Shown in pieces: positions 5,137 to 10,057 of a stretch of 64,000 nt of DNA; position 1 is the stretch's first letter, and every line of letters begins with the position of its first letter. The position numbers and the translations under genes were made by a program. A model generated the notes under the pieces. It was not told where the DNA came from. It searched no databases and saw only the letters and a list, made by a program, of their open reading frames with translations. This DNA is from Patescibacteria group bacterium (GTDB lineage Bacteria; Patescibacteriota; Microgenomatia; UBA1400; PJMF01). The stretch lies in the NCBI GenBank assembly GCA_016861205.1, contig BOKX01000001.1, forward strand, positions 136,539 through 200,538, given 5' to 3'.

Positions 5137-5952
5137 ATGAAAAACAGCTTGAGGTTTTTGGTGGTTTTGGGCTTAATAGCTCTTGGTGTTCGTCTGATAC
5201 CAGTCCAGTCAGTGATCGCACAAACTGCCGGTTTATCGTTGGGTATCGGTCAATCAATTAAGGTTTCAGGTGTCAGCACCGTGGCCAACGGTTCTATCAT
5301 TTCCTTTCAAAACAATCAGTATCAACTGAGTGCTGAATCGTACGATAAAAGTATGTTTGGGGTGAGTGCCACCAATCCGGCAATTGAAGTCACCGATAGT
5401 ACCACCAGAAATGAACCGGGAGTTACCTCGGTGCTCAGAAGTGGTCAAGTCCAAGTCCGAGTAAATGGTCGCAATGGGGCAATTATCAAAGGTGATCGGA
5501 TTACCAGCTCAGATCAGCCGGGTGTCGGTATGAAGGCCGTCAAAAGTGGTTTTGTGCTGGGGGTGGCGGAGGGCAGCTTTTCGCCGAGCTCAGAAACTGA
5601 TGAAGGCTTGATTCCCGTGACACTCGACATCAAGTTCACCTTTGCTGAAGACACACCTGGATCCGAGCGAATTGCAGCCCGTCTCAAAGATGTTGTTAGT
5701 TTAAGCACCGTTTCAATTGCTGAGGACCCACTCCAAACATTGCGCTATGTAGTGGCAGGCGTGGTGGTAATCGGAGCATTTACCTTTGCCTTCTTTACTT
5801 TTGGCCGATTGGCACACAACGGTATTGAGGCCTTGGGCCGCAACCCATTGGCCAGCCGGCCGATTGTGGCTGCGATGTTTTTTAATATCTTGGTAGCTCT
5901 AGGAATCATGTTGACCGGCTTGGTAGCTGCGTATCTGATAGTAACTTGGTAG
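5137..5952 (+). CDS. Membrane-anchored protein. It has an N-terminal signal/TM segment, a G/S/V/T-rich beta-type ectodomain of about 200 aa, and a C-terminal two-helix hydrophobic hairpin that resembles ATP synthase subunit c but has no conserved carboxylate.
   Basis: 271-aa ORF. The C-terminus is ...YVVAGVVVIGAFTFAFFTFGRLAHNGIEALGRNPLASRPIVAAMFFNILVALGIMLTGLVAAYLIV. The loop resembles the c-subunit ARQPE loop. Helix 2 has no D or E. It sits immediately upstream of atpA and overlaps it by 7 nt. Confidence 0.6.
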   Translation: MKNSLRFLVVLGLIALGVRLIPVQSVIAQTAGLSLGIGQSIKVSGVSTVANGSIISFQNNQYQLSAESYDKSMFGVSATNPAIEVTDSTTRNEPGVTSVLRSGQVQVRVNGRNGAIIKGDRITSSDQPGVGMKAVKSGFVLGVAEGSFSPSSETDEGLIPVTLDIKFTFAEDTPGSERIAARLKDVVSLSTVSIAEDPLQTLRYVVAGVVVIGAFTFAFFTFGRLAHNGIEALGRNPLASRPIVAAMFFNILVALGIMLTGLVAAYLIVTW

Positions 5953-7415
5953 GAGTCCAAAGATCACAAACTATGCCAAACACTGCGACTGTTGTCACTG
6001 TTAATCATCAACTGGTTACCATAGCGGGTTTGCCAGTCGTCAGGCCCGGGGCGGTGGTCGCTTTTGCTGACGATGGTTTGGGGTTGGTAACAGGTTTCAA
6101 TCAAGAATATGTCGAAGCGATCGTGTTCAATGAGCAACCTGTGCCAGTTGGGACGGCGGTCACGTTGTTGCAGCAAACTTTTGAAGTGCCTGTTTCGGGC
6201 TCATTATTGGGGCGTGTCATCAGCCCTTTAGGCAAAGCGCTCGATAGTAAACGGCTAGCTGAAAGTGAAGAAACTCGCCACTATAACACCCATCCCCTCC
6301 CCTTGCCGCAACGTTCACGCATCCAACAGCAATGTTTGACTGGTGTTGGTGTGGTAGATCTGCTCTTACCAATTGGAATGGGACAGCGGGAGCTGGTTGT
6401 TGGTGACCAAAAGGCCGGTAAGACGGCTTTTTTGGAACAGGCAGCTATTGCACAAGCACGCAGAGGGACAATTGTTATCTGGGCAGCTATCGGCCAAACA
6501 GCGGGTGAGATTAAACACCTGACACGCCAGTTGGATGCGGCCAAGATTTGGGATCAGACCATTGTGGTAGCGACTATGGCTCAAGAATCAGCAAGTCAAA
6601 TCTACTTAACACCATTCACAGCCTTAACCATGGCTGAGTACTTCCGGGATCAAGGACTTGATACCTTAGTTATCCTCGATGACTTGACCACTCACGCTCG
6701 AGCGTATCGCGAGTTGGCTCTATTAGCCAAACGTTTTCCAGGCCGTGATTCATATCCGGGCGATATGTTCTATATCCATGCGCGGCTGTTAGAGCGGGCT
6801 GGGAGTTTTACGCACCCGACCCTGCCAGACCAAACTGTGACAATTACTTGCCTGCCTGTAGCCGAGACGCATGAGAGTGATCTGACCAGTTATATTGTGT
6901 CAAACCTGATTAGTATCACCGATGGTCATTTGTTGTTTGATACCCAGCTCTTTAACCAGGGTCAGCGACCAGCTGTTAACATCGGTCTGTCGGTGACACG
7001 TGTCGGTAAACAGACGCAAACAAAGCTGCAGCGGGATTTGAGCCGTGAGCTGACCGCCTTTTTGGCAGAGTACTCGCAAACAGAAAAGCTCGTGCATTTT
7101 GGAGCGGAGCTGACTGATGCTACGCAGCAAGTAATCAAGAAAGGCCAGTCGTTACAAGCCTTTTTTAGTCAGGAACCAAGCACTACTATGAGTGCGGATG
7201 CGGTCGTGATTGGGGCGATGCTCATTTGGCTGGGTTGGTGGCAAACTGTCGAACGACTACAAATGTTGGCGCAACGTGATCACCTGGTGGCTCAGCTCAA
7301 GTTGCCGACGGGTCGCAAGTTGGCTGAGCAGTTGTTGGCTCAACCTGATTTGACTGCGTTAACAAATGCCATGCACGAACACCGGGCTGAGTTGGAGGAT
7401 TTATGCCGCGTTTAA
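5946..7415 (+). CDS. atpA: F1 ATP synthase alpha subunit (divergent; the N-terminal stator-binding helix is shortened).
   Basis: P-loop GDQKAGKTA (alpha is GDRQTGKT). Motifs EYFRDQGLDTLVILDDLTTHARAYRELALLAKRFPGRDSYPGDMFYIHARLLERAG and LLGRVISPLGKALD. 489 aa. Confidence 0.9.
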   Translation: MVGVQRSQTMPNTATVVTVNHQLVTIAGLPVVRPGAVVAFADDGLGLVTGFNQEYVEAIVFNEQPVPVGTAVTLLQQTFEVPVSGSLLGRVISPLGKALDSKRLAESEETRHYNTHPLPLPQRSRIQQQCLTGVGVVDLLLPIGMGQRELVVGDQKAGKTAFLEQAAIAQARRGTIVIWAAIGQTAGEIKHLTRQLDAAKIWDQTIVVATMAQESASQIYLTPFTALTMAEYFRDQGLDTLVILDDLTTHARAYRELALLAKRFPGRDSYPGDMFYIHARLLERAGSFTHPTLPDQTVTITCLPVAETHESDLTSYIVSNLISITDGHLLFDTQLFNQGQRPAVNIGLSVTRVGKQTQTKLQRDLSRELTAFLAEYSQTEKLVHFGAELTDATQQVIKKGQSLQAFFSQEPSTTMSADAVVIGAMLIWLGWWQTVERLQMLAQRDHLVAQLKLPTGRKLAEQLLAQPDLTALTNAMHEHRAELEDLCRV

Positions 7416-8300: not shown

Positions 8301-9710
8301 TTGAGTAAGGATCACACCATGTCTGAAATGAGAGGCACCCTACAAGCAGTTACTGGCCAAGTTGCCGTTGTTCGATTTGAACATGACCAACCCGCCGTGC
8401 ACGAGTTACTCCGCGATTCAGAAGACAACACCATTGTTCTCGAGGTGTTTAGCTCGGCCAGTGAGCATGATTTTTACTGCTTAATTTTGGACGGGCAGAA
8501 TCGGATTCAACGTGGGGCTACTTTTGTCCGCCAACATGAGACTTTGACAATTCCAGTGGGCAAAACTGTGCTGGGCCGAGTGATTAATGTTTTTAGCGAA
8601 CCATTGGATGACTTGGGAGAGTTGGGAGAGCGGAGCCAGTCAGTGTATCACTATGAGAAACGCACCTTGTCTGATGTGGTGATCCCAGAGGAAATGATGG
8701 TTACTGGCATCAAAGCGATTGATTTTTTTGCGCCCCTTCTTAAGGGTGGTAAGCTAGGTTTGTTTGGAGGAGCAGGTCTAGGTAAAACGGTGTTACTTAC
8801 TGAGCTGATTCATAACATCGTGATCCGTCACCGACGCCAAAAAGAAGATCAGGATCGGGTCTCGGTGTTTAGTGCAGTTGGTGAACGGACGCGTGAAGCC
8901 CAAGAACTGCGGGAAAATTTAGCCGAAGCCGGAGTTTTGGAAAAGACAGCTATGGTTCTTGGTCACATGGGTGAAAATCCAGCCATCCGGTTCCGGGTAG
9001 CGCTAGCTGGTGCCACCATGGCTGAGTACTTCCGAGATCACGGACAAGACGTGCTGTTTTTTATGGACAATGTGTATCGGTTTGCGCAAGCTGGCTATGA
9101 ACTGTCCACCTTGATGAGTGCTATTCCTTCTGAGGATGGTTATCAGCCTACCTTATCAAGCGAAATTGGGCAACTTCACGAACGCTTGACCTCATCGACG
9201 CAAGCCAGCATTACCAGTGTCGAAGCGGTGTATCTGCCGTCCGACGACAACACCGACTATGCGGTTCGTTCACTGTTGCCATATCTCAACTCAACTGTGG
9301 TTTTGTCTCGGACAGTGTACCAAGAAGGGCGTTTTCCAGCCGTTGATTTACTGGCCTCAAGCTCGATTGCGCTCAAGCCACAAATTGTTGGTCAGGATCA
9401 CTACCAGACATACACTGCAGCTAAACAACTCTTGGAGCGAGCTAAAAGCGTTGATCGGTTAGTATCACTGATCGGAGTTGGTGAGTTATCGGCTGAAGAT
9501 CAGCAAATCTATAAGCGAGCTCAGCTGCTTCGCAACTACATGACGCAAAGTTTTTACGCCGTTGAACCACAGACAGGAGTGCCAGGCGCGTTTGTGCCCC
9601 ACACCACTCTAGTCAAAGAAGTGGCAGCAATTTTGGCTGGTAAGCTGGATGAAGTGCCACCCGCTCAGCTACTGGGGCGAGGTTCCATTGCTGATTTAAT
9701 TCAAGCTTAA
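8301..9710 (+). CDS. atpD: F1 ATP synthase beta subunit.
   Basis: Walker [19 protein letters not shown]. Catalytic [62 protein letters not shown]-like GELSAED. Confidence 0.95.
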
Positions 9711-10057
9711 ACAGTGGGAGTTGAGGAAGCGTCTTTGCTGCTGACCTGGCTTTCAAGGCCAGTGAAAATCTCAACTTTGTTGTCAAAACAACGTAGCACA
9801 CCTTGTTGAATTTGAAACTCTTTATTGCCACCGTTTACCAGGTTGAGTGTGACTTGATCTCGGATCAAGGAAATAAAGTGGGCGTGATTAGGCAAGATGT
9901 CGAAGGGACCTTGGGAGTTTTGAGATGACAAGGCTGCGACCTCTCCAGAAAAAACCAACCCGTGTTGGTCACGAAACTCGACGTGAAACGTGGCGTTGAA
10001 CTCAGCCATAACTCCATTGTAGCAGTTTGGATTTGCTAAGTGACTGGGAACTGTCAT
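9707..10057 (-). CDS. atpC: F1 ATP synthase epsilon subunit. It is encoded antisense and convergent to atpD, with overlapping stop codons.
   Basis: Minus-strand ORF ...[82 protein letters not shown] is an epsilon N-terminal beta-sandwich. An alternative start at MAEF is near 10009. Confidence 0.8.

Follow-up and report, generated by a model that had tools for sequence, protein, structure and literature searches.

A patescibacterial F-type ATPase operon encodes a subunit-c derivative with a predicted ectodomain and no ion-binding carboxylate

We analysed a 64,000-nucleotide (nt) stretch of the genome of a Patescibacteria group bacterium (contig BOKX01000001.1 of assembly GCA_016861205.1, positions 136,539 to 200,538; hereafter the window), which carries at positions 5137–10057 the genes of an F1-type ATPase and that of a 271-residue membrane protein, here called c' (c-prime). 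The c' protein appears to be a derivative of ATP synthase subunit c that carries a signal peptide and an ectodomain and lacks the ion-binding carboxylate. The reading that we favour, at a probability of roughly 60%, is that these genes encode an ATP-hydrolysing F-type motor of Patescibacteria that is blind to ions and acts at the cell surface. Judged from its sequences, the complex probably spends ATP on surface work, not on making ATP or pumping ions. What the genes are is secure; the uncertainty concerns what the machine does.

The F1 genes of the window

The operon has the following features, with coordinates in the window and lengths in amino acids (aa):

5137–5952, plus strand: c', 271 aa, a subunit-c derivative at the atpE position of the operon
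5946–7415, plus strand: F1 alpha-like subunit, 489 aa with TTG 5946 as start codon, 480 aa with ATG 5973
7403–8293, plus strand: F1 gamma-like subunit, 296 aa (Pfam ATP-synt, 1.8e-17)
8301–9710, plus strand: F1 beta-like catalytic subunit, 469 aa from a TTG or 463 aa from ATG 8319
9707–10057, minus strand: epsilon-like open reading frame (ORF), beta-sandwich only, with a probable start at 10009 that gives 100 aa
5098–5126, plus strand: sigma-70-like promoter match in the divergent intergenic region just 5' of c' (9 of 12 matches plus a TG extension)

An earlier note, made from the sequence alone, had read atpA, atpG and atpD in canonical order with an antisense epsilon gene. Pfam matches confirmed both the order on the plus strand (ATP-synt_ab, 6.7e-64 for alpha and 5.8e-64 for beta) and the epsilon ORF on the minus strand (ATP-synt_DE_N, 4e-10). 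The c' gene is co-oriented with the F1 genes, and its stop codon at 5952 overlaps or abuts the alpha start. The promoter is a match to the consensus only, the number of such matches being not above that in shuffled sequence.

For all four F1 subunits the best NCBIfam match was a canonical F-type model, yet each score fell under the equivalog cut-off: 369 bits against 484 for alpha (atpA), 439 against 463 for beta (atpD, TIGR01039), 44 against 194 for gamma (atpG, TIGR01146) and 34 against 67 for epsilon (atpC). The NCBIfam models for mycoplasma F1-like ATPases, N-ATPases and FliI gave the window proteins lower scores than the canonical F-type models did. The beta subunit scored 373 bits against Fusobacterium F1 beta and 283 bits against the beta of Mycoplasma mobile.

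Alignment to solved F1 chains showed that beta keeps the Walker A motif (GGAGLGKT), the catalytic GERTRE, Walker B and a DELSEED-like GELSAED, bearing out what had been noted for Walker A and GERTRE. In alpha, aligned to solved alpha chains in the PDB, both GDQKAGKT and the arginine finger SVTRVG are present. Epsilon aligns to residues 2–80 alone of solved chains of 133–141 aa, and is thus without the C-terminal helical hairpin. Taken together, an intact F1 head (alpha3beta3) with its catalytic residues is encoded, along with gamma and a short epsilon, likewise intact.

c' ends in a subunit-c hairpin without an ion-binding carboxylate

At the usual thresholds c' had no Pfam or NCBIfam match, and its homology emerged only from family profiles and member-wise scans. 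No record in the assembly index matched the c' sequence of the window exactly. We found 67 c' homologs, all of them in Patescibacteria (Pacebacteria, Roizmanbacteria, Cerribacteria and others), and worked with an alignment of 62 family sequences (A1) in which the window protein is the first row and has all the invariant columns. A second profile (A4) was built from the hairpin alone. The AlphaFold2 model of the window protein (predicted local distance difference test score 89) has a helix at residues 2–20, a beta-domain at about 37–168, a linker helix and a long hairpin at 198–270. The parts of c' are placed as follows:

5137–5223, plus strand: predicted signal peptide or N-terminal anchor, residues 1–29 ending VIAQ (hydrophobic helix 2–20 in the model)
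5224–5670, plus strand: predicted extracellular beta-domain, residues ~30–170, and linker helix (Foldseek against the PDB and BFVD)
5728–5946, plus strand: subunit-c-like transmembrane hairpin, residues 198–270, with the predicted cytoplasmic loop EALGRNPLAS

An 'AQ' is conserved at the end of the N-terminal hydrophobic stretch in A1, and the signal peptide is probably cleaved. Since a signal peptide is followed by an ectodomain and then by an Arg-rich loop, that loop would be cytoplasmic, as it is in subunit c.

The two C-terminal hydrophobic helices are joined by a loop with the consensus EALGRNPLAS, in which G234, R235, N236 and P237 are invariant across A1. When the A1 profile was searched against all PDB sequences, seven matches were obtained at E<=10 and every one was an ATP synthase c subunit (best 0.0098). 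The A4 profile gave nine PDB matches, again all c subunits, the best (0.0011) being that of Chloroflexus with its loop AIGRNPE. In the member-wise scan, NCBIfam 'F0F1 ATP synthase subunit C' models matched 34 of the 62 members (best 7.8e-5); for the window protein the match had an E of 0.01 and covered residues 195–268. Foldseek superposed the hairpin on c subunits with a root mean square deviation (rmsd) of 1.1–1.5 A and 27–28% identity to Chloroflexus subunit c. When profiles were searched exhaustively, the hairpin was matched by 760 representative clusters at E<=1e-3, and in all of the best 150 of these the hairpin lies at the C-terminus. The combined lines of evidence make a convincing case for homology between the c' hairpin and ATP synthase subunit c.

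The 271-aa protein had previously been described as an unusual membrane protein; the profiles, NCBIfam matches and Foldseek superpositions show that it is no unrelated partner. The related claim that the locus has no Fo or stator genes held in part: genes for a, b and delta were not found in the 64-kb window, but the 271-aa protein contains a subunit-c hairpin.

In both profile alignments, the ion-binding glutamate of real c subunits aligns to L255, a column occupied by L, I, V, F or C across the 62 members. Aspartate and glutamate were sought at every position of both hairpin helices in these members and none was found. A nearly invariant polar residue of helix 2, N250, sits five residues cytoplasm-ward of the ion site. 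In helix 1, positions 207, 214, 218 and 223 are nearly always occupied by small residues, which would be compatible with tight packing in a ring.

The ectodomain resembles phage decoration and tail proteins

The c' ectodomain has an invariant motif around G103, G114, I116, G129 and G138 and is conserved to the same degree as the hairpin in A1. Against the PDB, Foldseek matched it to phage cement and decoration proteins (Pam3, Borrelia BB1 and TW1) with E values of 4e-5 to 4e-4, and within the same span to the C-terminal autochaperone domain of the phi29 gp12 tailspike. Against BFVD, the best matches were domains within proteins annotated 'preneck appendage protein', 'tail protein' and 'tail fiber-like', with E values down to 2e-12, 20–25% identity and rmsd 2.3–3.5 A over about 140 columns. 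Some c' relatives also had sub-threshold Pfam matches to XM1_gp53_minor_capsid and Phage_cement.

We also observed longer c' variants of 425–573 aa (P0132, P0139, P0145 and others), in which a cytoplasmic MerR/HTH_17-like helix-turn-helix and a transmembrane helix stand N-terminal to the ectodomain. The helix-turn-helix follows the pattern '...LSLADAA..GVSQDYLRFLI..KKL.A.K.GRNW...', and the same helix-turn-helix families were recorded at the N-terminus of a 7185-aa giant neighbour and in P0069.

A conserved operon with stalk subunits and no subunit a nearby

One genome per GTDB species was scanned with the pattern EA[LI]GRNPLA, and a c' relative was found to be encoded in at least 397 species genomes. 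The best 80 of these 397 were taken with their flanks (±10 kb). The record titles among these 80 name the Patescibacteria groups Pacebacteria, Roizmanbacteria, Levybacteria, WWE3 and Cerribacteria; some instead read 'Gammaproteobacteria', 'Pseudomonadales', 'Methylococcaceae' or 'Saccharibacteria', and these are presumed mislabels. As far as we have seen, the c'-type operon is confined to Patescibacteria (Microgenomates and WWE3/Katanobacteria).

Gene order was counted in 62 non-redundant loci with enough downstream sequence, after labelling of the ORFs by profiles. Alpha, gamma and beta lie downstream of c' in 58 loci, and in 55 the order is c'-X-Y-alpha-gamma-beta-epsilon, X and Y being two further genes. 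X has one transmembrane helix and a coiled coil, and its profile matches ATP synthase subunit b (4e-6). For Y the profile match is to OSCP/delta (6e-8), with a Pfam OSCP match in 30 of 45 members. On these matches X is assigned as b and Y as delta, so that the operon reads as the canonical atpEFHAGDC order minus atpB. The earlier note had allowed for a split operon with atpBEFH elsewhere; this disagrees with the comparative data. In the window a c derivative stands directly upstream of alpha, and in 55 of the 62 related loci b and delta lie between the two, so that the F-type operon is self-contained and lacks just atpB (in the window lineage also b and delta).

ATP-synt_A was sought in the multi-transmembrane ORFs of the window and of 84 related loci (±10 kb), and none matched. 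As candidates for subunit a in the related loci we took one representative per cluster of multi-transmembrane ORFs of 150–360 aa. Pfam instead gave DUF1295, YdjM, DUF1761, EamA, PMT_2 and Peptidase_M50; a prepilin peptidase and Rce1-like, VIT1 and ComEC proteins were also rejected, and two more candidates had no significant Pfam match. A further protein, with five transmembrane helices and 238 aa, is conserved a few genes downstream of Pacebacteria operons (L001 18996–19712, and also L006, L033 and L051; L numbers denote individual loci). It was rejected as subunit a, having no Pfam match and no a-like features.

Some loci have other layouts. In L014, L024 and L026, c' has no alpha, gamma or beta nearby; in L024 and L026 a b homolog is the next gene after c', and in L014 the b profile detects no b. 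In L021, c' is divergent from a putative b-like gene (205 aa, one transmembrane helix) and a delta gene on the other strand. These four layouts imply that the membrane part is separable from F1 in the genome. The beta subunits of L001, L006, L007, L008, L012 and L032 carry a low-complexity C-terminal extension of 105–170 aa rich in Pro, Glu and Lys, which the window beta is without.

The reading with which these data must first be compared is that of an ordinary, if divergent, ion-translocating F1Fo synthase or pump, with a (and here also b and delta) encoded elsewhere, and with a c' that either has a non-canonical ion site or loses its ectodomain by cleavage. Reviews assume that the F-type ATP synthases of Patescibacteria were kept for ion homeostasis and treat them as synthases or ion pumps (PMC11665869; PMC13293708). 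Alpha and beta are indeed nearest to canonical F1 and the gene order is that of atpEFHAGDC, the ectodomain resembles auto-cleaving phage chaperone modules, N250 offers a nearly invariant polar residue in helix 2, and our searches for a covered the window and ±10 kb loci.

Against this stands the absence of Asp and Glu from either c' helix in 62 sequences. To our knowledge, every characterised rotor subunit of F, V or A type uses a membrane Glu or Asp, and because there is no carboxylate in either helix, cleavage of the ectodomain would not restore coupling. N250 lies away from the ion site, by the five residues given above, and an ectodomain as conserved as the hairpin is not expected of a disposable pro-peptide. 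In addition, atpB is absent from its canonical position in all 84 loci, with no tested multi-transmembrane neighbour ORF matching ATP-synt_A. The genome of WWE3 RAAC2 likewise has no recognisable a: Kantor et al. (2013, mBio, PMC3812714) described in it an ATP synthase operon with recognisable alpha, beta, gamma and epsilon but no recognisable a, b or c. Overall, we regard an ordinary F1Fo enzyme as a very unlikely explanation.

A stalk-less form with a short alpha and an inverted epsilon

The window departs from the common layout. Family profiles for b and delta found nothing at E<=10 in the whole 64 kb, nor in the loci L004, L005 and L010, and in all four cases alpha directly follows c'. No epsilon was seen nearby in L004 and L005. 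A strain-level relative that is 98% identical, L087, has exactly the layout of the window. The stalk-less form is rare, represented by the window, L004, L005 and L010.

The N-terminus of alpha varies with the presence of the stalk. E. coli alpha has 28 aa ahead of the beta-barrel. Across the c' family there are 14 aa (Microgenomates, with the motif MxxFxxYLxxxGEY) or 21 aa (WWE3), whereas the four stalk-less loci retain just 2–13 residues and the motif is gone. In the window there are at most 13 aa, or 4 aa if translation starts at ATG 5973, the start called in L087; residue 11 of the window alpha aligns to residue 27 of a solved alpha chain. Both the shortened alpha N-terminus proposed earlier and its suggested fit to a missing delta are upheld, since the conserved segment of 14–21 aa is kept in delta-bearing relatives and lost from the four loci without delta. 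In a neighbour-joining tree built on alpha and beta, the window groups with Pacebacteria- and Cerribacteria-like loci; the tree does not separate a single loss of b and delta from repeated loss.

The stop codons of beta and of the inverted epsilon lie within one palindromic TTAA (9707–9710), giving a convergent overlap of 4 nt. This overlap is exact in both relatives checked, which come from independent assemblies, L087 (5286–5289) and L089 (15598–15601), whose c' proteins are 98% and 50% identical to that of the window. A minus-strand epsilon is also found in L087 and, with b and delta present, in L007, L008, L011, L012 and L089. The conservation of the TTAA overlap points to an old inversion of the ~300-bp epsilon gene alone, and its occurrence in L089, L007, L008, L011 and L012 (c' ~40–50% identical to the window) argues that the inverted state is old and stable.

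An invertible epsilon cassette, or phase variation, was considered and rejected, the inversion being old and fixed. A search for inverted repeats flanking 9707–10057 gave none that was convincing, only 10–16-nt pairs at chance level and two GC-rich palindromes. The latter are two copies of CCCGCCGATGGCGGGG (10060–10075 and 10124–10139), between a tRNA-Arg gene and the epsilon start. Their role may lie in processing or termination, and epsilon may be co-transcribed with the tRNA-Arg (10160–10234, minus strand).

With b and delta lost, epsilon inverted and alpha truncated, the operon of this lineage could also be taken for a decaying, functionless one on its way out. Genes are indeed missing from the window and its three stalk-less counterparts, with epsilon also not seen near two of these, and some Microgenomates are without any ATP synthase (PMC7143001). 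We find decay scarcely credible, given the state of the genes. All five ORFs are intact and keep the catalytic motifs. Relative to L087, the ratio of non-synonymous to synonymous change (dN/dS) is 0.11 for c', 0.03 for beta and 0.14 for epsilon, while alpha and gamma have no non-synonymous difference (proportion of non-synonymous differences, pN, 0.000 in both; dS 0.098 and 0.024, respectively). Against L085, synonymous sites are saturated (proportion of synonymous differences, pS, 0.74–0.82), with low amino-acid change: pN is 0.096 for c' (pS 0.74) and 0.035 for alpha. All five genes are clearly under purifying selection. The inverted epsilon with its TTAA overlap is a stable arrangement shared across relatives, conservation of the stalk-less layout over a deep clade is in part already apparent, and the loop and ectodomain motifs are invariant in a family that extends over 397 species genomes and 760 representative clusters.

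A giant surface protein is encoded next to the operon

1–4967, minus strand: giant surface protein, divergent from c'; the N-terminal 1655 aa of a protein of at least that length, with its C-terminus past the window edge

A divergently transcribed giant protein upstream of the operon had been noted previously, and the open frame confirms it, cut by the window edge. It has one predicted transmembrane segment, at the N-terminus (a membrane anchor or signal), followed by a conserved juxtamembrane region at about residues 40–300 and then by variable repeats. A Pfam scan of the window giant gave no match.

The window giant served as the jackhmmer seed for a search of the neighbourhoods. Homologs of residues ~40–300 are large proteins encoded divergently upstream of c' in 45 of the 71 loci with enough upstream sequence; in six more loci a homolog lies directly downstream of the operon, making the two adjacent in 51 of 85 overall. 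A homolog search with the N-terminal 420 aa gave eight proteins. Because the association spans the deepest splits of the c' family, it is unlikely to be due to chance. In L089, two toxin-antitoxin pairs (ParE/PhdYeFM and BrnT/CopG antitoxin; 3227–4584) lie just beyond the giant gene.

Among ten complete upstream giants, five contain a Peptidase_S74 domain, and these come from both the Pacebacteria and the WWE3 branches. In phage tail fibres and endosialidases, Peptidase_S74 serves as an intramolecular chaperone. Neighbouring giants can also contain the c' ectodomain itself, for example at residues 1570–1710 of the upstream giant of L005 (E 4e-24).

Association with a large surface protein recalls the mycoplasmas, in which F1-like ATPases of Type 2 (the G1-ATPase of Mycoplasma mobile gliding) and Type 3 (the F1-like X0 partner of MIB-MIP) have been described (PMC12994834; PMC3369863; PMC11864180) and power surface proteins (PMC12994834). 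By analogy with these, which stand beside a Type 1 enzyme, the complex studied here could be an accessory F1-like ATPase beside a normal F1Fo, with c' as a static anchor in a non-rotary device that assembles, anchors or resets the giant. The mycoplasma complex is required for its surface system and co-purifies with it (PMC12994834), and the operon here is syntenic with the giant gene. The stalk-less design of the window, with no b or delta and an alpha without its N-terminal helix, is that of F1-like X0, and c' shares the order of signal peptide, ectodomain and two C-terminal helices with MMCAP2_0577 and MMOB1650.

Several observations stand against a static device. Most members of the family keep b and delta, for which we know of no role other than resisting rotary torque. 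The whole rotor is conserved, with gamma, epsilon and an invariant c-loop, and no homology to the mycoplasma families reaches a cut-off. As for a second enzyme, Kantor et al. described just one operon for ATP synthase in the genome of WWE3 (PMC3812714). We therefore hold the accessory, non-rotary reading to be rather unlikely.

A proposed ion-blind motor at the cell surface

In the ion-blind motor that we favour, the complex would be unable to translocate H+ or Na+, and would therefore be neither an ATP synthase nor an ion pump. It would hydrolyse ATP, its epsilon being without the inhibitory C-terminal helices. The rotor of gamma, epsilon and c' would pass torque, or a conformational change, through the membrane, and the receiver would be a crown of c' ectodomains on the cell surface. 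This crown would act on the giant fibre, or the two would act jointly, for instance to attach to a host, to pull or to move on it. A peripheral stalk of b2-delta is kept by most of the family, which argues that torque between rotor and head is still of consequence. Having lost b, delta and the delta-docking N-terminus of alpha, the window lineage would converge on a stalk-less F1-like X0.

In its most specific form, which we offer tentatively as a possibility, an ion-free c-ring is spun or twisted by ATP and its phage-derived ectodomain crown engages a trimeric, tail-fibre-like giant adhesin, possibly via the homologous fibre domain, as an extracellular device.

A number of points weigh against a surface motor. 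Each sequence line for the identity of the hairpin is weak alone (best E ~1e-3 to 1e-4), and the case convinces only in combination. Ring formation by c', rotation and contact with the giant are all hypothetical. A subunit a with a canonical c, or a full second F1Fo, could be encoded beyond the regions searched (the window and ±10 kb). In the absence of subunit a, no membrane partner is known with which the one helix of b could act as a fixed stator, and in the window lineage, which is without a peripheral stalk, productive rotation is hard to picture unless another protein holds the head. Genes for such giants are common in Patescibacteria, which could account for part of the synteny, and a jackhmmer profile from a repetitive region may over-collect giant homologs.

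Patescibacteria make up a large share of bacterial diversity. With no subunit a in the regions covered and no ion-binding rotor residue, these genes of Microgenomates and WWE3 cannot be read as those of an ATP synthase or proton pump, and calls of 'complex V present' based on alpha, beta and gamma matches are probably wrong for hundreds of species. The family is also a natural experiment, in which F1, the central stalk, the c-ring and usually the peripheral stalk appear to be retained while ion coupling is gone. Comparison of the stalk-less window form with its stalk-bearing relatives would address the need for a peripheral stalk once subunit a is gone. If the complex is a motor that acts at the surface, it would offer a way into how patescibacterial epibionts grip their hosts; in the specific form above, it would provide ultrasmall epibionts with a mechanical device outside the cell, powered by ATP, with which to attach to a host, pull or glide on it.

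Other features of the window

A large serine recombinase (Resolvase and Recombinase domains) is encoded at 40094–41677 on the minus strand, and its 3' end overlaps a tRNA-Pro gene (40075–40151). Beyond it, the ORFs at 41.9–45.8 kb have no Pfam match, and the G+C content falls to ~0.45 between 40 and 44 kb. An HNH endonuclease (38132–38617) is encoded near the recombinase. The region 40075–45900 is a candidate for a mobile element integrated at tRNA-Pro. Elsewhere, a 125-aa ORF (11755–12132, minus strand) overlaps two tRNA-Leu genes (11876–11962 and 12015–12097) and is almost certainly spurious.

Comparison with known systems

The closest published description is a single paragraph in Kantor et al. 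(PMC3812714). Its 'putative c subunit' is a membrane protein common to WWE3 and OP11 (ACD38/ACD24) and without homology to known subunits; the three genes upstream were assumed to be a, b and c, and the direction and the ion were left open. The operon described there (WWE3 RAAC2, OP11/WWE3 ACD38/ACD24) very probably belongs to the same gene family as the c' operon, and WWE3 loci dominate one branch of our neighbour-joining tree. By our assignment the three upstream genes would encode c', b and delta, and a would be absent. That description says nothing of the missing carboxylate, the fold of the ectodomain, the giant-fibre synteny or the stalk-less, epsilon-inverted form. In the literature on bacteria of the Candidate Phyla Radiation we found no 'c subunit with ectodomain' or 'F-ATPase without subunit a' beyond this 2013 remark, and ATP synthase is nowhere mentioned in PMC7507113. 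The anatomy of the c fusion, the missing carboxylate, the assignment of b and delta, the lack of a, the synteny with the fibre and the stalk-less sub-form thus appear to be unpublished.

Canonical bacterial F1Fo (atpBEFHAGDC) is closest to the F1 of the c' family, with homologous alpha, beta, gamma and epsilon N-domain. The wider family shares its order c-b-delta-alpha-gamma-beta-epsilon, and in the c' hairpin both the R-(Q/N)-P loop and an N-out topology are preserved. In contrast to canonical F1Fo, the family has no subunit a in the regions covered, and its c', devoid of an ion-binding carboxylate, bears a signal peptide and an ectodomain of ~150 aa. The window differs further in that epsilon is on the opposite strand and lacks the C-terminal helices, that b, delta and the alpha N-terminal helix are absent, and that all F1 subunits score below the equivalog cut-offs.

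The N-ATPases (alternate F1Fo, atpDCQRBEFAG) are a second divergent F-type lineage. They keep a, b and an ion-binding c and have AtpQ and AtpR. The window proteins scored 340.4 and 399.7 bits with the N-ATPase models, far below the cut-offs of 750.5 and 752, and no AtpQ/AtpR, a, b or ion-binding c genes were found in the window. The FliI-FliJ-FliH ATPase of flagella and type III secretion is also F1-related, has gamma-like and b/delta-like partners and serves a surface appendage. It is, however, a homohexamer of one subunit, whereas the window encodes an alpha/beta pair, gamma, epsilon and a c-type hairpin, and the window scores with FliI models were ~190–200 bits against cut-offs of 380–620.

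In the mycoplasma Type 2 and Type 3 ATPases, alpha is without the N-terminal helix, b and delta are missing, and the seven-gene cluster includes a 12-transmembrane protein and a small cytoplasmic protein (PMC12994834). In its alpha and its lack of b and delta, only the stalk-less form (the window, L004, L005 and L010) is like them; most members of the patescibacterial c' family keep b and delta. The likeness of c' to MMCAP2_0577 and MMOB1650 concerns architecture, which was compared in place of sequences (PMC12994834). In the NCBIfam scan of c' members, canonical subunit-C models were the only recurring family, in a library that may hold no mycoplasma two-transmembrane model. The window proteins scored 269.5, 343.6, 346 and 339.9 bits with the MSC_0618/0619 and MMOB1660/1670 models, against cut-offs of 520, 570, 600 and 850, and all of these scores lie below those for canonical atpA and atpD. 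Moreover, the window cluster consists of c'-alpha-gamma-beta and epsilon, with no adjacent 12-transmembrane ORF or small cytoplasmic subunit. Membership in the mycoplasma F1-like X0 families was rejected on these scores and on gene content, and the likeness is convergent or very remote.

The proposal of the earlier note that this is an F1-like ATPase with a different membrane partner, in the manner of the mollicute X0 modules, therefore survives in part. There is no ion residue, no subunit a, no alpha docking helix and no peripheral stalk in the window, c' has the architecture of the mycoplasma proteins, and a giant surface protein is linked to the operon; but the complex is not a member of the mollicute family and has no 12-transmembrane protein. 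What the two groups have in common is an F1-derived ATPase without an ion-translocating Fo that is tied to large surface proteins, here by synteny. If the patescibacterial complex acts at the surface as a motor, the recruitment of rotary ATPases to drive machinery of the surface would have happened at least twice, once in mycoplasmas and once in Patescibacteria. In the specific form proposed above, it would be the first rotary ATPase whose rotor works outside the cell, and would parallel the gliding and MIB-MIP motors of mycoplasmas independently.

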